Of a stretch of 37,424 nt of DNA, positions 16,822-24,494 are shown one piece after another. The stretch comes from an uncultured Ilumatobacter sp. (GTDB lineage Bacteria > Actinomycetota > Acidimicrobiia > Acidimicrobiales > Ilumatobacteraceae): positions 1 through 37,424 of the forward strand of contig CALAHA010000220.1 of assembly GCA_937891565.1 (NCBI GenBank). Reading direction: 5' to 3'. The notes beneath the pieces are model-generated. The model worked only from the letters and a program-made list of their open reading frames with translations. It was not told the origin of the DNA and did not search any database. The stretch's first letter is position 1. Each line of letters begins with the position of its first letter. The position numbers and the translations under genes are program-made.

Positions 16822-17637
16822 ATGGGACTCTTCCGGAAGAAAACCAACGAACCGAATCAGATCGACGTGCTCCGAGCCGAGATCGTCGACCTCAAACAGC
16901 GACTCGATGCGTCCGATCAGCAGAAGGCCGAGCTGCTCTCGATGGTCGGCACGGTCGATCAGACGAACTCGTTGCTGTACCAGCGGCTCGATTCGCTCGA
17001 TGTCGCCGGTGCACAACTCAACCAGCGAGTCGGCGCCGTCGATGATCGAGTCAGCCAGGTCGGCCAGGAGATCGGCGAAGTCGGTCACCGATTCGGTGCA
17101 GTCACCGAACTCTCCGGTCAGGTTCGTGCGCTCGCCGACCGGCTCGAGGTCGAGTCGAAGAAGGTTCCGGCGCTCCCACGACCAGACCTGCGCATCGACG
17201 CGCTCTTCACCCGCATCGACCAACTCGCTGACTCGATCACCGACCACGACGGACGCATCAATGCCGCACAAGCAGCCTTGAGCAATGCCGACGTTCAGAT
17301 GGTGCAAGATCAGGTCAGCCAAATGGCCGAGAAGATGTCAGCGCTCGACAACCGAATGAACAAGGTGTCTCTCGAATTGGCCAACCAGTTGACCGAGTTG
17401 AGCAACGATCTCGATGTGCTGCTCGATCAGGCCGACGCCGAAAAAACGCCGACAGCCGACGATACGGTCGCCGTGCAAGAACTCGTTGCCGAAGCAATCA
17501 GCTCAGTCCAGCGCAGCACCGAAAAGCTCGCTGCCGAACAGGCCCGATACGAGATTCAGTTCCGTGCCGATCTCGCCGAACTGGCCGAGCGCTTCCGCCG
17601 CCCGCTGAACTCGAACCAACGATCACCGAATCAGTAG
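16822..17637 (+). CDS. Hypothetical coiled-coil protein
   Basis: Heptad-rich acidic helical sequence with an MGLFRKK N-terminus; fills the gap between flanking genes. Confidence 0.8.
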   Translation: MGLFRKKTNEPNQIDVLRAEIVDLKQRLDASDQQKAELLSMVGTVDQTNSLLYQRLDSLDVAGAQLNQRVGAVDDRVSQVGQEIGEVGHRFGAVTELSGQVRALADRLEVESKKVPALPRPDLRIDALFTRIDQLADSITDHDGRINAAQAALSNADVQMVQDQVSQMAEKMSALDNRMNKVSLELANQLTELSNDLDVLLDQADAEKTPTADDTVAVQELVAEAISSVQRSTEKLAAEQARYEIQFRADLAELAERFRRPLNSNQRSPNQ

Positions 17638-17681: not shown

Positions 17682-20594
17682 TCAGCCAGCTTCGAGGATG
17701 GCGAGTGCCTCAGCGAGGCGAGCACGGGCTTCTTCGACCTTGGCCTGGTACTCGCCCAGGTCACCAATGGCGAGGGCGTCGTCGGCTTCGCCGAAGAGCG
17801 AGTCGGCCAGCGTCAACAGCTCTGCAGCATCGACGGGCAACCCAGACACATCAATGCCATCGTCTTCGACCGGGGCGGCCGGAACGACATCGCCGGGTTC
17901 GGTTGGCACGCCGAGAACGTCACCGACATCACCTTCGAAGCCGGGGAAGAGCCGTCGGACACCTTCGGTAATCGTGCTCGCCAGCACCGAGTTGTTGCCG
18001 TTCGAGACGATGACGAAGCGGAATTCACTGACAGAGCGGACCGTGCCAGTTTCCTGCGGAACTGCGACGTAGTACGGACGCACCCAAATCAGGCCGTCGC
18101 CGACGGGAACCAATTGGAGGTCACCGAAGCGCACCTGGGTGCCGCCAGCATCCTGGTTGTCGAGTGTGATGCGGTCGGAGATCTCAGACTGTGATTCGGC
18201 GTTGCCAGCCACACGGAGTGGACCGTCAGGAAGGTTGCCGTTGCGTTCCTGCACGACGTACGTCGTCAGCTGTCCGTAGGTATCAGGGTCACTTGAAGCC
18301 GTCATATACGACTGCAACTGGGTACGGGTGTCGCCTGTCGAGAACGGTACGAACGGGCGCAGGATGACGAACTCTTCCTTGCGTTCCTCACCGGGCTGAC
18401 TGGTGTCGAAGACCGTGTAGTACGGGGTGAATCGTTCGGCGTTCGACTCGGTGGCGAACGTGTTGGCGGCTGCAGAAGGAGCCCCAACGACGGTGTCTGA
18501 GATCGTCCGCGTGTTGCTCGCCGGCGTTGCGCTCGGGGCCTGGGCCACCGACCATGCGTTGCCGTCGCGCTGGAAGAACAACTTCGGGTCGAGCCGGTAC
18601 TTCGAGTACACATCGGTCTGGATGCGGAACAGGTCTTCCGGATAACGGAGGTGTTCCCGGATCACCTGAGGCATTTCGTCACCAGAGGTGAACAGGTCAG
18701 GGAAGGCGCTCTGCCACGCCTTGAGGATCGGGTCAACGTCATCGACGACGTAGAAGGTGACGTCGCCGGTGTACGCATCGACAACAACCTTGACGCTGTT
18801 GCGCACGTAGTTGTCGCTGTTGGACAGCCCGGACTGCGGCGAGCGCTGCACGGCACCAATGGACTGGGCATACGGGTAGCGCGACGAGGTCGTGTAGCCG
18901 TCGACCACCCACACTGCTCTACCGTCAACGGCGACCGGGTAGGGGTCAGCATCGTACGACAAGAAGGGTGCGAGCTTGGTGAGGCGGTCGTTGACGTTAC
19001 GCACCCAGAGCATCTGGGAGTCGGACCGGATTGCACCCGAGCCAACGACGTTGTAGTCGAGGAAGGCGAGGGCAAAGGCCGCTCGACGAGCGAACGAGCT
19101 CATTGCCACACCTTGGGTGCCTTCGTACTGGTGGGGCTCGTCGCATTCGCGTTCGCTCGATGCAGAGTTGGCAATGCCGTAGCCACTCATCGTTGGGCTG
19201 AAGTACAGCTCGGGGCGATCGAGTTCGAGCGTTCGGTAATCGGGCCGCTGGTTCGACTGGACCTTGCTGGTCGGCGCTGCCACAAGGCCACACCCGCGGG
19301 TGTTGATCAGGTGGATGCCCTGCCAACTGCGGTTGGTGACACCACCGAGATCCAGCTCGCGGGCTGCCACGAGGACCTCTTCGACTTCGCCGTCGAATTC
19401 GTAGCGGTCAACGTCGAGGTCTTCAATGCTCAAGCCAGCGACTTGGCCTTCGTCGACGAGGAAACGGGTTTCCATTTCGGCCGGGTTGAGGAGGCGCACG
19501 TTGGTGAGCGGATCGATGTCGGCCTCGACCTCGGCAGCGGTGAGCGTGCCGAACTGCACTTCGCGGATGCCGACGTCGGTCAGGCCCAATGCCTCGCGGG
19601 TCGCATCGACGTTGCGCTCGATGAACGGGGCTTCACGGGTTTCCTGGTTCGGATTGACGACGAGCGACTGGACGATGGCCGGATAGATCACGCCGCCAAC
19701 GATGGAAACGACCAGCCACAGCGCCGAGGCGAGCAGCGGTAGACGCCATGAATTGGTCTTTATGACCGACAGGTAGAGGACAGCGGTCAGGACGGCAATC
19801 AGGATCAGCAGCATGATTGCGGGGATTTGCGCATTGACAACCGAGTAGGTGGCGCCATCGACGATGCCCCGGGTGCTGTTGGTCAGTTCGTAGCGATCCA
19901 GCCAGTAATCGCCGGCCTTGAGCACGGCCAGGATGGCCAGAAGGACCGCTAAGTGAGCCTTCGTTGCGTCGCGAATCACCGGGGCCGGCGAGACAAACAC
20001 GACGCCACCATTAAGGATGTGGGCGGCTGCGGTGAAGAGGAGGACGAGGATGACGGCGACGAACATCCAGTCGAGCAGGAACGTCAAGAACGGCAGCTGG
20101 AAGACGTAGAAACCGACGTCGGCGCCGAACTGCGGGTCGGGCGTGCCAAACGATTGGGAGTTTCGGAAAAGCAGCCAAAGCTGCCACTGGGCCACCGCTG
20201 GTAGCGCAATTAAGACGGCGAGGATGAGGGCCGAAACGTAACGAACGAGGCGGAGTCGTTTGCCGAACACCTCGTGGAATCGTTCGACGTACGGGTGCAC
20301 ATTGGCCGGGAACGACGAGGGCGCAGTCCGATCTGCGATGTAGAGGTTGACGCAGGCCAGCACCGCAAAGAACAGAAAGAAGACCGCAAAGAGCGTGAAC
20401 TTTGCGCCGAGGACACCCCAGAAAACGTCACCTCGATTGAGGGCGCCGTGCCACAGGTAGTCAACGTAGAAGCGAGCGATCGCACGCCCAAAGATCAGGA
20501 CGAACATAAACAGTCCGCCGAGTCCAATCAGGATGCCACGGCCGGTAAACCGGCGTCGTGAGCGATCGACCGGGAGGTCTTGTGAGCGCCGCAT
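17682..20594 (-). CDS. UPF0182 family integral membrane protein
   Basis: DPQFGADVGFYVFQLPF, VNPNQETREAPFIERN, DADPYP, NYVRNSVKVVVDAYTG, HLRYPEDLF. Start ATG 20594 with TAATCT 8 nt upstream. Confidence 0.95.
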   Translation of the reverse strand: MRRSQDLPVDRSRRRFTGRGILIGLGGLFMFVLIFGRAIARFYVDYLWHGALNRGDVFWGVLGAKFTLFAVFFLFFAVLACVNLYIADRTAPSSFPANVHPYVERFHEVFGKRLRLVRYVSALILAVLIALPAVAQWQLWLLFRNSQSFGTPDPQFGADVGFYVFQLPFLTFLLDWMFVAVILVLLFTAAAHILNGGVVFVSPAPVIRDATKAHLAVLLAILAVLKAGDYWLDRYELTNSTRGIVDGATYSVVNAQIPAIMLLILIAVLTAVLYLSVIKTNSWRLPLLASALWLVVSIVGGVIYPAIVQSLVVNPNQETREAPFIERNVDATREALGLTDVGIREVQFGTLTAAEVEADIDPLTNVRLLNPAEMETRFLVDEGQVAGLSIEDLDVDRYEFDGEVEEVLVAARELDLGGVTNRSWQGIHLINTRGCGLVAAPTSKVQSNQRPDYRTLELDRPELYFSPTMSGYGIANSASSERECDEPHQYEGTQGVAMSSFARRAAFALAFLDYNVVGSGAIRSDSQMLWVRNVNDRLTKLAPFLSYDADPYPVAVDGRAVWVVDGYTTSSRYPYAQSIGAVQRSPQSGLSNSDNYVRNSVKVVVDAYTGDVTFYVVDDVDPILKAWQSAFPDLFTSGDEMPQVIREHLRYPEDLFRIQTDVYSKYRLDPKLFFQRDGNAWSVAQAPSATPASNTRTISDTVVGAPSAAANTFATESNAERFTPYYTVFDTSQPGEERKEEFVILRPFVPFSTGDTRTQLQSYMTASSDPDTYGQLTTYVVQERNGNLPDGPLRVAGNAESQSEISDRITLDNQDAGGTQVRFGDLQLVPVGDGLIWVRPYYVAVPQETGTVRSVSEFRFVIVSNGNNSVLASTITEGVRRLFPGFEGDVGDVLGVPTEPGDVVPAAPVEDDGIDVSGLPVDAAELLTLADSLFGEADDALAIGDLGEYQAKVEEARARLAEALAILEAG

Positions 20595-20605: not shown

Positions 20606-22285
20606 TTATCGGCCGGCAGCCGCCAACAGGCAGCGGCACCCTTGATGAGCGGGGGCAAACACGTCACCGGTCGGGAATCCGTCGCCTGCCGTGATGGCCC
20701 CGGCGAGCACATTGTCTTCGCAATCGGGGCACGCCGCGAAGCGCGGATCGGCTTCCCAAACTATGGGCGTGTCAGGCGCAAAACCAGCGAGTACGCCACG
20801 TCCGTGGGCCCGACGCAGCACGTCGTCAAGGCTCTCATCGATGTGTTGGGTCTTCCATTCGCGGTACACGGAACGGACCTTTTTGGTGACGACCGCGTTG
20901 TCGCCGGCGCCTTCTTCGATGCATCGGGCGAGGCGATCGCGCAACGGCACGACCAGCCACTGCTCGACAGCGCCGTTGGCCACGCTGACTGATTCGGTCA
21001 CGAGACCCTTGCGCAGCTGGGTTGCGCCAGTTTTCGATGTGGCGCCACCGAGCCGGACGGCGGCCTCGAGGTCGTCGGCGATGGCAGCGGTGTAGCGAGC
21101 GACGTGTTCGCTCAATGTTGGAATCATCTCGTCGAGTTCGTGCACCGGCTCGCCGCGACGGAGCGCATCAAGGACGTCGTTCTGCTCGTCGGCCAGCGCT
21201 CGCTTCAACTTCTTTGCACTCGACACGATCAGGGGCGTGACAACCTCGTCACGTTCGGCGAAACCAATCGCTGCTGCCTCGATTTCCGACTCGACAGCAA
21301 CTTCAGCAACTTCAGCAACTTCAGCAACTTCAGCAACTTCAGCAACTTCAATTATTTCAATGTTCTCCTCGTCCGCTGCAGAATCGGTTTTTGCCGGCAC
21401 GTCGGCCCGGATGCGAGCGAACAAATCGATAACGACATCACGGTCATCGTCGTCGTCCACTTCGTCATCCGCTTCGTCATCATGTCCGCTGTCAGCTTCG
21501 GGCTCGGGCTCAGCGACCGGCGCCTCGGTAATCCCGATGTCGTCAATAGCAACGACGGGGACAGCAGCTGTCGCTTCGGGGCGAGCCGAGTTCGCGATCA
21601 TCACGGGGAGCGGCCCGGTGGTCGGTGTGAGGTTCACGTATTCCTCAGGCTCACCGAGCGGTTCCATCTCAGCAATGACGTCGACAGCCACAAGGCGAGC
21701 CCGCTCAAAGGTCTGCATCAGACGTTCACGACCATGGATCAGTTGTTCGATCTGTTCACGTGCTAGTTCGCGACGGCGTGCCAGCTCACTCAGCACGCGC
21801 TCGCGGTAGGCGCGGGCTTCGTTGACCATCTCGCGACCCTGGTGCTTGGCCATCGACAGTTCGGCTTCAGCATCGGCCGTCGCGTCGCCACGTCGACGTG
21901 ATGCCTCAATCTCGGCTTCCTCGCGCACGCGATTGGCTTCGTCACCGGCCTCACTCAGCATCTGTGCTGCTGACTGCTCGGCTTTCTGGCGGATCTCGCT
22001 GGCGCTCTCGCGGGCGGTGATGAGGACGCGCATGGCTTCTTCACCGAGCAGCCGGGTCATCGCCTCGTCGTCAACCTGAGCAGCAACACCCGAGTCGAAC
22101 TGAGCCGCCTGGAGTTCATGTTCGAGAAAGCGCTCGCGCTCACGCATTCGGCCCAGCTCGGCTGCGACCATTCTCAGAAAGTCTTTAACCTCAGCCTGAT
22201 CGAACCCGCGGCGGGATATGCCAAACGACGCGTCGGCGATGGACGTCGGCGATGATGGGTCGGGGCGCGAAGTCGACATAGCCAT
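20606..22285 (-). CDS. DivIVA-domain coiled-coil protein with a C-terminal phage MuF/minor-head-like Cys/His domain
   Basis: N-term SIADASFGISRRGFDQAEVKDFL (DivIVA signature), long coiled coil, acidic linker, and C-term W...CPDC...FPTG...PAHQGCRC. Confidence 0.85.
   Translation of the reverse strand: MAMSTSRPDPSSPTSIADASFGISRRGFDQAEVKDFLRMVAAELGRMRERERFLEHELQAAQFDSGVAAQVDDEAMTRLLGEEAMRVLITARESASEIRQKAEQSAAQMLSEAGDEANRVREEAEIEASRRRGDATADAEAELSMAKHQGREMVNEARAYRERVLSELARRRELAREQIEQLIHGRERLMQTFERARLVAVDVIAEMEPLGEPEEYVNLTPTTGPLPVMIANSARPEATAAVPVVAIDDIGITEAPVAEPEPEADSGHDDEADDEVDDDDDRDVVIDLFARIRADVPAKTDSAADEENIEIIEVAEVAEVAEVAEVAEVAVESEIEAAAIGFAERDEVVTPLIVSSAKKLKRALADEQNDVLDALRRGEPVHELDEMIPTLSEHVARYTAAIADDLEAAVRLGGATSKTGATQLRKGLVTESVSVANGAVEQWLVVPLRDRLARCIEEGAGDNAVVTKKVRSVYREWKTQHIDESLDDVLRRAHGRGVLAGFAPDTPIVWEADPRFAACPDCEDNVLAGAITAGDGFPTGDVFAPAHQGCRCLLAAAGR
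21295..21350. repeat. 9-bp coding tandem repeat CAGCAACTT x6, encoding (EVA)6
   Basis: Six perfect units in the linker of the DivIVA fusion protein. Confidence 0.97.
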
Positions 22286-22325: not shown

Positions 22326-23597
22326 TCAGCTCAGAGTGATGTTGACGGGGACGAGCGGGTCCCCACCCAAGTCTTCCAGCGCCTGAAGCGCCTCGTCGAG
22401 CGTGGCCACCGGAATGATCTCGACATCACCATGGCCTGCGTCGTTGAGCTTCTTACGGAGCTCATCTTCGCCTTCGGCTAATTCACGCTGCGAAGCCGGC
22501 ACCAAGAACACGTCAACATGGTGTTGGTGGACCGCGCTGACCTTCTGCGACAAGCCACCAATTGGCCCGACAGAGCCGTCGAGCGAGATCGTGCCAGTCA
22601 CGGCGATGTTCCGCCCACCGGTCAACTCGCCATCGGTCAGCTCGTCGATCAGAGCGAGCGTGAACGCCAGACCAGCAGACGGGCCACCGATCCGGCCGGT
22701 GTCGATATCGACCTGGAACGGCAACGTGACGACTCGAGTGTCGAACGGACGGAATCCGACGATCGTGCGGGTGGGATCGTCTGGGGACGCAGCCAGTTCG
22801 ACCGTCACGTCGAGGATCCCCACGTCGGGGCGTCGGATCTTGAGGTCGATCGTGTCGCCCGGCAACTTGCCGTCGAGCACGGCGGAGAGGTCTTCAACCG
22901 AGTTCAGCTCCTTGCCTTCAGCTTCGAGAATCGTGTCGGACGGATCAATAGCAAGGTCCGACGGGAAGAACTCGGCGCATAAGCCGTCGTCACCGATCTC
23001 ACGGCAGAGGACTTCTTCAACGACGACTTCGCCGAGGCTGATCTCGGGTTCGTAGCCAGCGGCGGTGAGGGCGACGAACTGGGCCTCCTGGGATGCCGAC
23101 CGCATTTGTTGCAACGCTGCTTCACGCCGCTGCGACGCTGTCCGAACACCGAACTTGTCTTCAGTGGTGAGGAGGTCGATCGCAGGGTCACTCCGGCCAG
23201 CAAACCACGACAGCAGCGACTGTTCGGGGGCGCTGACCGTCACGAAGAAGAAGTCTCCATTGGTCTCGAACCGTTTGACTTCGTCAGGAAGATCACCAAA
23301 CACCACACGCTCGTTCACCGACTCGGCCGAGGCCGGGGTCTGCGCAAACGGCGCCGGCTGCATCTCCATCAGGCGACGGTTCTCTTTCTCAGCGACAAGG
23401 GTTGCTGGGACCAACGACGCAGCAACAATTCCTGCCAGCGCAACCAAGCCGACGCCGCCGAGCAGCCATCCGAGGCGTCCGAGCCACTTTCCGCCCGGCA
23501 ACTCAACATCCAAACCGTTGGCCATCGGCGTGCCCGGTGAGGCCAACGCAGTGTTGAGTACAGTGTTGTTTGTTGTGTCGGTCACAGATCTCACCAC
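22326..23597 (-). CDS. Membrane-anchored PDZ + Lon (S16) protease domain protein (YlbL-like)
   Basis: N-terminal TM, PDZ-like region, catalytic GGPSAGL (Ser) and IGGLSQK (Lys), IAVTGTI. The true start may be 23582 or 23525. Confidence 0.9.
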   Translation of the reverse strand: MVRSVTDTTNNTVLNTALASPGTPMANGLDVELPGGKWLGRLGWLLGGVGLVALAGIVAASLVPATLVAEKENRRLMEMQPAPFAQTPASAESVNERVVFGDLPDEVKRFETNGDFFFVTVSAPEQSLLSWFAGRSDPAIDLLTTEDKFGVRTASQRREAALQQMRSASQEAQFVALTAAGYEPEISLGEVVVEEVLCREIGDDGLCAEFFPSDLAIDPSDTILEAEGKELNSVEDLSAVLDGKLPGDTIDLKIRRPDVGILDVTVELAASPDDPTRTIVGFRPFDTRVVTLPFQVDIDTGRIGGPSAGLAFTLALIDELTDGELTGGRNIAVTGTISLDGSVGPIGGLSQKVSAVHQHHVDVFLVPASQRELAEGEDELRKKLNDAGHGDVEIIPVATLDEALQALEDLGGDPLVPVNITLS

Positions 23598-23898
23598 TCA
23601 GGCCGGTTGGATGGTCGGGCTCGCCATAGTGGCGCTGCTGGGGACCGGCTGGAGAAAGACTGCCAGAGCCACGGCCCGAACACCACGCACGGCGCCAGTT
23701 GTTCGCAGGAAATGGGTGCCGATCGGCATCGCTGAGACCGTCGTTCCCCTTTACAGGCGTCCAAATGTGCTTCGCCGCGTGTGGGCCGTGGTCGCAAGCT
23801 CGGCTCTCGCTGTTGTCATGGGCGCCGTCCTGGCCATCGTCATTGCGTTCGCACTGGCATACGCCGTCATCACCCTGACTGATCTGTTGAAGCAATGA
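23575..23898 (+). CDS. Small membrane protein of unknown function
   Basis: 3' part of ORF 23065..23898, with two hydrophobic segments and a basic middle. ATGA-coupled to the HEAT gene. Start uncertain (GTG 23563/23575 or ATG 23611). Confidence 0.6.
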   Translation: MSVTDLTTQAGWMVGLAIVALLGTGWRKTARATARTPRTAPVVRRKWVPIGIAETVVPLYRRPNVLRRVWAVVASSALAVVMGAVLAIVIAFALAYAVITLTDLLKQ

Positions 23899-24494
23899 CC
23901 GGACCGACCCGCAAAGACGTCGCTGTCGCTGGCCATCAGGGCGACATCGGCACCGCCACGGCCGGGCTCGCCAGTGACGACGGCAACATCCGCGCAACAG
24001 CATTGGGTGCCCTCGAGCGGCTCGGCGAACTGGCCGACGAAAAGTTGACCGAAGCGTTCAGCGACAACGACCCTCGCGTTCGCCGACGAGCCGCCGAGCT
24101 GGCAGCGACGCATCCGTCGGTCGACGTCGTCCCGCTGCTCGCCGATCCCGACGTGAACGTGGTTGAGATGGCGGCGTGGACTACGGGGGAACACGAATCG
24201 AATCGACCTGCAGTACTCGATCGCCTATTGGAACTTGCCCAGAACGCTGAGGAGCCGCTCGTCCGTGAGGCCTCCGTGGCCGCGCTCGGGGCAATCGGTG
24301 ATCCGGCCGCCGTCGACGTCATCATCGCGGCGTGTAGTGACAAGCCCGCAGTGCGCCGCCGCGCCGTCCTCGCCCTGGCCCCCTTCGAGGGCCCAGCAGT
24401 CGAAGCCGCCATCGAGCAGGCATTAGTTGACCGCGACTGGCAAGTCAGACAAGCCGCCGAAGACCTACGAAGAGCCCAAGCTCGACCCAACTAA
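23895..24494 (+). CDS. HEAT repeat (PBS-lyase-like) protein
   Basis: Repeated D.dpxVRxxAxxaLg units (DNDPRVRRRAAELA, EEPLVREASVAALG, DRDWQVRQAA). Confidence 0.9.
   Translation: MTGPTRKDVAVAGHQGDIGTATAGLASDDGNIRATALGALERLGELADEKLTEAFSDNDPRVRRRAAELAATHPSVDVVPLLADPDVNVVEMAAWTTGEHESNRPAVLDRLLELAQNAEEPLVREASVAALGAIGDPAAVDVIIAACSDKPAVRRRAVLALAPFEGPAVEAAIEQALVDRDWQVRQAAEDLRRAQARPN

Follow-up and report, generated by a model that had tools for sequence, protein, structure and literature searches.

An apparently undescribed DivIVA paralogue of Acidimicrobiia with a MuF-like C-terminal domain

What does a domain resembling a phage head protein do at the end of a DivIVA-type scaffold protein encoded on an actinobacterial chromosome? 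The question is raised by a gene of an uncultured Ilumatobacter sp. (Actinomycetota; Acidimicrobiia; Ilumatobacteraceae; GenBank assembly GCA_937891565.1), found in a stretch of 37,424 nucleotides (contig CALAHA010000220.1, positions 1 to 37,424), hereafter called the window. The gene encodes a protein of 559 amino acids (aa), in which a DivIVA head and a long coiled coil are followed by an acidic linker and a C-terminal domain similar to the MuF proteins of tailed phages. Databases name it “DivIVA domain-containing protein”. A preliminary description of the window had proposed the fusion from a series of motifs, all of which are present: RRGFD (aa 25-29), IVWEAD (aa 508-513), CPDC (aa 519-522), FPTGD (aa 537-541) and HQGCRC (aa 547-552). 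The DivIVA part is confirmed by a match to PF05103 (38.1 bits against a cut-off of 28), and RRGFDQAEV at aa 25-33 fits the RG(Y/F)DxxEV motif, with the coiled coil after it. The MuF part is upheld by homology detected with a family profile and with Foldseek. The protein is thus apparently an undescribed DivIVA paralogue with a MuF-derived domain.

The C-terminal domain (aa 335-559, 225 aa) was modelled by AlphaFold2 with a mean predicted local distance difference test score (pLDDT) of 96 as a helical bundle ending in a small beta/Cys-His knuckle. Taken alone, the window protein gave no significant MuF match in single-sequence searches of Pfam, NCBIfam and PHROGs: it reached E 0.11-0.24 against TIGR01641 (11.8-12.9 bits, cut-off 39.65) and matched neither PF04233 nor a head-protein PHROG. 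Four relatives scored 19-20 bits against the curated PF04233/TIGR01641 cut-off of 29.6. Among 78 aligned family members, 64 matched PHROG 2662 (best E 5e-15), 35 matched TIGR01641 and 19 matched PF04233. When these 78 cellular domains were compared with 12 viral MuF domains by hhalign, the probability was 99% (E 2.6e-18, 113 columns). The viral set had been gathered with motifs seeded from the cellular family, so that the comparison is partly circular. The circularity is tempered because those viral proteins qualify as MuF independently: the scan of viral contigs gave 37 loci, four of the six proteins tested exceed the PF04233 cut-off, and the two loci checked both lie within portal-MuF-protease head modules. 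Foldseek against viral models returned 59 structures at E<=0.001, with the whole domain aligned and TM scores up to 0.74, and the named matches were mostly minor-capsid, head-morphogenesis or portal proteins. Atlas features scored 0.95 against PF04233 clusters for the family member of Egibacteraceae and 0.88 for the domain of the window. A search of 1.8 billion proteins gave 4130 matches at E<=0.001, and the best 150 of the 4130 were all strong full-domain matches. A tblastn search of annotated phages with one family member found no match. Among solved structures there was no clear match: by sequence profile the best was a helical stretch of ZorA (E 0.005), which we took as chance, Foldseek found none at E<=0.001, and VIA-align found generic bundles (best Z 6.8). 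These negatives do not make the fold new. We regard the homology of the C-terminal domain to phage MuF/gp7 proteins, proposed in the preliminary description, as almost certain.

At the level of residues, the Trp, CxxC-xx-N, FP(T/S)G and P-A-H-x-x-C-x-C positions agree column by column between the cellular domain and phage MuF. The Cys/His residues singled out in the preliminary description are conserved in most homologues: CxC was found in 168 of 176 distinct cellular ends, the His in 160 and the first Cys pair in 131, and the second Cys was replaced in 37 of 168. The knuckle is a predicted structural zinc site. The bundle carries motifs of its own, KRxLxDEQNxxL (aa 358-372) and YREWK (aa 474-478), and K361, R362, L372 and R475 are invariant across the 78 aligned members. 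Among rows with the terminal Cys motif, to which these counts are limited, the AxTE hallmark, which belongs to the phage helix motif RAxxIAxTE, occurred in 45 of 48 viral rows versus 1 of 72 cellular rows, and a YRxWK-type motif in 64 of 72 cellular rows versus 2 of 48 viral rows. The cellular domain is therefore MuF-derived but diverged, and it stands outside the MuF minor-capsid family because it falls below the curated cut-off, has no portal neighbour and lacks the AxTE motif. Three relatives (P0295, P0302 and P0303) carry the precomputed Pfam family PF28068, which may be a newer model of part of the fusion protein.

The fusion is not an artefact of assembly. An assembly chimera was rejected, since DivIVA lies in the same frame in 146 of the 176 distinct cellular homologue ends. 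The remaining ends were split (17), ran off a contig edge (9) or had no head (4); seven of the 17 split cases, and locus L352 in addition, were read, and the apparent frameshifts or N gap in them were taken as assembly errors. The nearest named relatives of the C-terminal domain are Ilumatobacter records (89-92% identity), and a cultured carrier of the family is Ilumatobacter coccineus (WP_015440071.1). A 41-row profile search matched 259 of 301 Acidimicrobiia genomes (a tally that includes the unpublished G187, G218 and G235), 249 of them with a single match. The ratio of nonsynonymous to synonymous substitutions (dN/dS) of the domain was 0-0.19 in 12 pairs, indicating purifying selection and, with the wide occurrence, a long-term cellular gene. 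In agreement with the preliminary description, no phage family was found among the 35 open reading frames (ORFs) of the window scanned with Pfam, which are part of all its ORFs. The family profile and the viral MuF profile each matched only the fusion gene in the six-frame translation of the genome (81% complete). A prophage relic was rejected on the absence of phage families among the scanned ORFs, the single genome match and purifying selection. That the fusion is a real, vertically inherited cellular gene is, in our view, beyond reasonable doubt.

The same genome (G000) contains a separate DivIVA gene of 299 aa next to ileS on contig C45, as had been asked of a canonical divIVA. The fusion gene is therefore a DivIVA paralogue. 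Two PF05103 genes were also found in all four further genomes of the class that were checked. Against the NF050102 Wag31 equivalog model the fusion scored 41.8 bits against a cut-off of 260, and its locus is not near ileS or dcw.

The linker of the window allele is 87 codons shorter than that of five near relatives, with the junction near window position 21463 (-). Contigs of three independent runs from three studies bridge this junction gap-free, and the gap was therefore taken as a natural in-frame deletion. A 9-bp tandem repeat in the linker (Table 1) was spanned by none of the listed contigs, and its copy number is thus provisional. The linker also contains a conserved amphipathic helix, hereafter the LFxxLR helix, whose pattern was found in 145 of 171 homologue linkers compared with 3.4% of 2000 control stretches. 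In the AlphaFold2 model that includes the motif (predicted template modelling score, pTM, 0.77), docked and free positions of the helix are not distinguishable. The helix may bind the membrane or a helical partner. Homologues without the DivIVA head or the MuF domain still carry it.

Table 1 Features of the fusion gene and its two flanking genes in the window.
Feature	Position in window	Strand	Basis
Gene for DivIVA/linker/MuF-like fusion protein, 559 aa	20606..22285	-	Intact ORF, no internal stop; same architecture in 146/176 distinct cellular homologue ends
DivIVA head (RRGFD loop) and first coiled coil, aa 12-129	21899..22252	-	PF05103 E 1.8e-9, above cut-off; TIGR03544 aa 12-44, above cut-off
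Continued coiled coil, about aa 130-207	21665..21898	-	Wag31 model over aa 22-178, 41.8 bits vs 260-bit cut-off; end point from reading the sequence
Acidic, length-variable linker, about aa 208-334	21284..21664	-	Net charge -33 over aa 211-334; low pLDDT outside the motif, modelled from aa 273 onward
Conserved amphipathic helix motif V-x-x-L-F-x-x-L/I-R, aa 285-293	21407..21433	-	145/171 homologue linkers; helix in model, pLDDT about 81
9-bp tandem repeat, 6.2 copies, EVA repeats in linker	21295..21350	.	One more copy in L033
MuF-like helical bundle, aa 335-501	20783..21283	-	AlphaFold2 pLDDT 96, pTM 0.91; Foldseek matches to viral head proteins
Cys/His knuckle, aa 507-559 (W510, C519, C522, H547, C550, C552), predicted structural zinc site	20609..20767	-	Column-by-column match to phage MuF ends
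UPF0182 membrane protein gene	17682..20594	-	PF03699 E 3.7e-209; 11 nt downstream of fusion gene if ATG at 20594 is the start
PDZ/Lon-C membrane protease gene	22326..23597	-	PF05362 above cut-off, PF13180 E 3.4e-5; 40 nt upstream of fusion gene

The position of the gene directly before UPF0182, on which the preliminary description did not draw, is the strongest contextual clue to its role. UPF0182 lies directly downstream in 171 of the 174 loci with flank. An automatic adjacency test was passed by 166 of the 176 distinct cellular ends; among the ten that failed, five have UPF0182 directly downstream after all, flank is missing in two, one opens a tandem pair that precedes UPF0182, and UPF0182 is absent from two (family f24). 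On the upstream side, PDZ-Lon is present in 115 of the 130 loci whose flank is long enough, so that the position of UPF0182 is the more constant of the two; Ilumatobacteraceae are over-represented among the counted loci, which are not independent. The three genes likely form one operon. A promoter and terminator scan gave no excess over shuffles, and an RNA run (X18) yielded only short pieces, 3-8% different from the window. UPF0182 has been phenotypically tied to FtsH/YccA membrane-protein quality control in three actinobacteria (bioRxiv 10.1101/2025.11.14.688347).

Three comparisons of the domain with UPF0182 were made. Distances of the domain and of UPF0182 were correlated (rho 0.54, 70 loci, permutation maximum 0.24), which shows common descent only. 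Mutual information between the paired alignments had a top z of 7.5 versus 5.5-6.2 in five shuffles; one column dominates and descent confounds the result. A complex prediction of UPF0182 aa 1-320 with aa 273-559 of the fusion protein and zinc gave a score of 0.00 and a mark of 0.32, and its controls were not folded, so that it weighs neither for nor against a complex.

Outside Acidimicrobiia, 20 of 368 genomes matched the profile (the 368 include the unpublished G437). Fifteen of these 20 were examined for their locus; all 15 have the gene before UPF0182 and 13 have the DivIVA head, and one of the families concerned is Egibacteraceae, by the name of an identical protein. Two further matches, which bring those examined to 17, were a prophage MuF behind a portal gene (G497) and a stand-alone relative (G324). 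Within the class, the main gap is family f25, in which none of 26 genomes matched; those listed are about 1 Mb in size. UPF0182 is kept in family f25 (3/3). No PF05103 match was found in the eight f25 genomes checked (G005, G011, G017, G022, G027, G032, G036 and G056; 90-94% complete). Such streamlined 1-Mb genomes with no detected DivIVA-domain gene are unusual for Actinomycetota. Some individual loci also deserve mention. In L233 (G303:C4, 5035-7744 (-)), from a 1.7-Mb genome of another class (family f55), two tandem coiled-coil and MuF-like paralogues with no clear DivIVA head lie directly before UPF0182. L252 and L253 are two full PDZ-Lon/fusion/UPF0182 blocks on different contigs of one genome (G098), reflecting duplication or mixed strains. 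L033 and L035 carry the gene at 91-100% identity and in the Ilumatobacter gene order in records titled Gammaproteobacteria, and are probably misbinned contigs.

The modules of the protein have been lost separately in several lineages. At least seven genomes stop before the Cys/His knuckle and keep the bundle with its KR/QN and R-x-W-R motifs. In two loci of family f27 (L348 and L349) the frame begins right after the PDZ-Lon stop and encodes only the LFxxLR helix, the linker and the MuF-like domain. Across the loci of this family (L344-L353, L134 and L144), the DivIVA head and the coiled coil have been lost stepwise in several genera, with the gene still between PDZ-Lon and UPF0182.

The fixed gene order suggests the UPF0182 machine as a partner. 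Our preferred reading, to which we give somewhat less than an even chance, is that the product of this second chromosomal DivIVA-family gene acts as an adaptor in the cytoplasm and docks another protein, with the UPF0182 membrane quality-control machine as the most probable partner. A protein-docking role of the MuF-like domain is in itself fairly likely, and the minimal f27 versions, which keep the LFxxLR helix and the MuF-like domain at the same site, are counted in its favour. That the docking partner lies within the UPF0182 machine is a more tentative suggestion, drawn from gene order only. By analogy with the DivIVA family, the head would dimerise and bind the membrane, and the protein would probably be located at poles or septa. 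Each dimer would then hold two MuF-like domains on long acidic tethers. The binding surface may be the helical pair KRxLxDEQN/YRxWK, assisted by the LFxxLR helix, because these elements are conserved and remain in proteins that lack the DivIVA head or the Cys/His tail. The docking activity would have been inherited from portal-binding MuF/gp7 proteins and turned to a new partner, possibly UPF0182 itself or its FtsH/YccA-linked complex. Phage 80alpha gp44, which we take to be kin to MuF, is also relevant here. Its helical N-domain dimerises and gives no DNA shift (PMC7290940), and SPP1 gp7 is targeted to procapsids by strong portal binding (PMC6316719). DivIVA heads dimerise, bind membranes and serve as interaction hubs at poles and septa, and the DivIVA domain of GpsB is likewise a protein-interaction hub (PMC13463852).

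Several observations weigh against this adaptor. The DivIVA head is missing in nine of the 11 f27 genomes read, so that polar targeting by the head is not universal, and in one genome (G267) DivIVA and the LFxxLR helix are kept and the MuF domain is gone. PDZ-Lon abuts UPF0182 without the fusion gene in family f25 (3/3 checked) and in two f59 genomes, so that the fusion gene may be no more than a passenger in an old operon. In two f24 genomes the remaining copy is degenerate, and the 1.5 kb downstream of it contain no UPF0182. UPF0182 is described as universal in Actinobacteria (10.1101/2025.11.14.688347), and the fusion gene was not found in 348 of the 368 genomes outside the class. UPF0182 lies mostly outside the cytoplasm, which leaves short loops for binding, and the partner assignment is based on the gene neighbourhood alone. 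Finally, the loci are heavy in Ilumatobacteraceae and not independent, and the tree described below is unrooted, has 130 columns and contains viral rows motif-seeded from the cellular family.

The main rival gives the protein a structural role alongside the canonical DivIVA, similar to that of FilP and Scy, in which the bundle and the LFxxLR helix would cross-link the protein with itself or with Wag31 into a polar lattice and the position of UPF0182 would be incidental. The pattern in family f25 fits this idea, as the fusion gene (0/26) and PF05103 matches (0/8 checked) are both absent there, yet UPF0182 is kept (3/3); family f25 is, however, one genus and counts as one loss event. Dimers formed by the helical N-domain of 80alpha gp44 (PMC7290940) and the interaction of the DivIVA-like paralogues FilP and Scy with DivIVA (PMC9858780; PMC4255298) point the same way. 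A lattice leaves unexplained the constant place directly before UPF0182 across several classes and the persistence at this site of f27 versions without most of the coiled coil. We therefore consider it unlikely, if still the best of the alternatives.

Another question is the direction of transfer. In a tree of 120 rows and 130 columns, 47 of the 48 viral rows fell on one side (88/98) and one long viral branch fell among the cellular rows. Constraining the 72 cellular rows together raised the log-likelihood by 23 (approximately unbiased test, p-AU 0.72), and several genome families grouped together. The viral rows of this tree were gathered with motifs seeded from the cellular family. An old cellular domain taken up by phages, or shared ancestry with nothing domesticated, would agree with an unrooted tree in which cellular and viral rows form essentially two sides, with the age of the gene within Actinomycetota and with the stand-alone relative of G324 in a non-phage context. 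On the other side, MuF was reported in 35% of 1753 tailed phages and 96% of the bacterial copies were prophage-linked (PMC5576092), relatives are present in phages of Firmicutes, Proteobacteria, Actinobacteria and archaea, and the cellular fusion was seen only in Actinomycetota, the phylum searched genome by genome. Because MuF is spread far wider in phages, transfer from phage to cell is probable even with an unrooted tree, and the reverse or a shared ancestry is improbable. The stand-alone relative (L246; G324:C130, 1253-1999 (-)) encodes 207 aa and matches PF25310 (VG15) above cut-off. A Cache/HAMP gene follows it, no phage family was found among the three neighbours scanned, and it groups with cellular rows on a long branch, with no relatives of similar length found.

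The preliminary description had offered three roles for the C-terminal domain, and all three fare less well. The first is that it binds DNA, whereby the chromosome would be anchored to the pole or septum. SPP1 gp7 is termed a DNA-binding protein in a reference title within PMC6316719, and the invariant K361, R362 and R475 could make a basic patch. The domain is acidic, with a mean net charge of -7.9 and 77 of the 78 members not net positive (one is positive), and so lends the anchor no support, a weak argument in that the viral homologues are acidic too. The DNA binding of gp44 resides in a separate C-terminal domain (PMC7290940), whereas the cellular proteins end at the knuckle, and the conserved neighbours are membrane genes rather than segregation genes. 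We give the anchor little credence.

A redox or metal sensor, in which the knuckle would switch the scaffold or the neighbouring proteases, could draw on the conservation of CxC, of the His and of the first Cys pair noted above. Phage proteins conserve these residues as well, which is what an inherited structural site would show. The second Cys is often replaced, and at least seven genomes lost the knuckle and kept the bundle. Such a switch is thus a poor candidate for the core job of the protein. Defence genes are typically patchy in distribution. An anti-phage decoy that binds the portals of infecting phages and spoils head assembly has in its favour the homology to a portal-binding phage protein, but the near-universal, mostly single-copy and vertical inheritance, the housekeeping neighbourhood and the loss of AxTE from all but one cellular row make it very improbable.

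Two other genes near the locus recur in relatives. A 271-aa coiled-coil gene (window 16822-17637 (+)), with no Pfam family above cut-off, is convergent on UPF0182 and kept in most Ilumatobacteraceae loci. A HEAT-repeat gene (window 23895-24494 (+)) is divergent from PDZ-Lon and kept across most of the Acidimicrobiia loci read.

According to the literature, MuF domains belong almost exclusively to phages or prophages, and their function is largely unknown (PMC5576092). In Acidimicrobiia, the homologue described here is nearly universal and inherited vertically, and copies of it exist in several further lineages of Actinomycetota. If the protein is an adaptor, it would link the DivIVA polar-growth scaffold to membrane-protein quality control and would be a clear case of a phage head module turned to cellular use. 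A fuller and more doubtful scenario begins with an early actinobacterium that acquired the portal-docking MuF module from a tailed phage and joined it permanently to a DivIVA paralogue. The product would be a tether at poles or septa that positions the UPF0182-FtsH machine where the wall grows. In that case a component of virion assembly would serve an entire bacterial class as a core adaptor of cell organisation, and the function and structure of MuF domains could be approached in a tractable non-viral setting. Should the proposed partner prove wrong, there would still be a MuF-type domain that is soluble and modelled with confidence, together with a cultured carrier, for asking what MuF domains bind, in an apparently undescribed DivIVA paralogue whose natural deletion variants separate its modules.

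How does the protein compare with known systems? No paper on a DivIVA-MuF fusion was found in literature searches, whose reach excluded most subscription papers and supplements. With phage MuF and SPP1 gp7 (PF04233, TIGR01641, PHROG 2662 of portals and portal-MuF fusions, and PHROG 2468/4728/115) it shares the same predicted fold over the whole domain, and the nearest phage MuF branch ends in FP(T/S)GD-xx-PPAHPNCxC. Unlike phage MuF, which is stand-alone, behind a portal or ahead of a toxin, the cellular domain sits behind DivIVA in a gene with no portal or terminase neighbour, has AxTE replaced and its own KRxLxDEQN and YRxWK motifs, and, in the window protein, falls below all MuF cut-offs. 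Like DivIVA, Wag31 and GpsB (PF05103, TIGR03544, NF050102), it has an RGFD head above the Pfam and TIGRFAM cut-offs with a long coiled coil after it, but it carries in addition a folded C-terminal domain of 225 aa. FilP, Scy and PolyDIV (PMC9858780) are likewise second DivIVA-like actinobacterial genes with the RG(Y/F)D motif and a long rod, whereas the fusion gene adjoins UPF0182 and not methylmalonyl-CoA epimerase or UMP kinase. The results section of that survey of DivIVA-like proteins names one group only with an extra folded domain, a Ser/Thr kinase on PolyDIV (PMC9858780); its supplement could list fusions of the present kind. In the MuF polymorphic toxins (PMC5576092), as here, MuF is one module of a fusion protein. 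There it is N-terminal, phage-borne, joined to a toxin and followed by a small immunity ORF, whereas the domain described here is C-terminal, chromosomal, free of any detected toxin domain and followed by the large membrane gene UPF0182.

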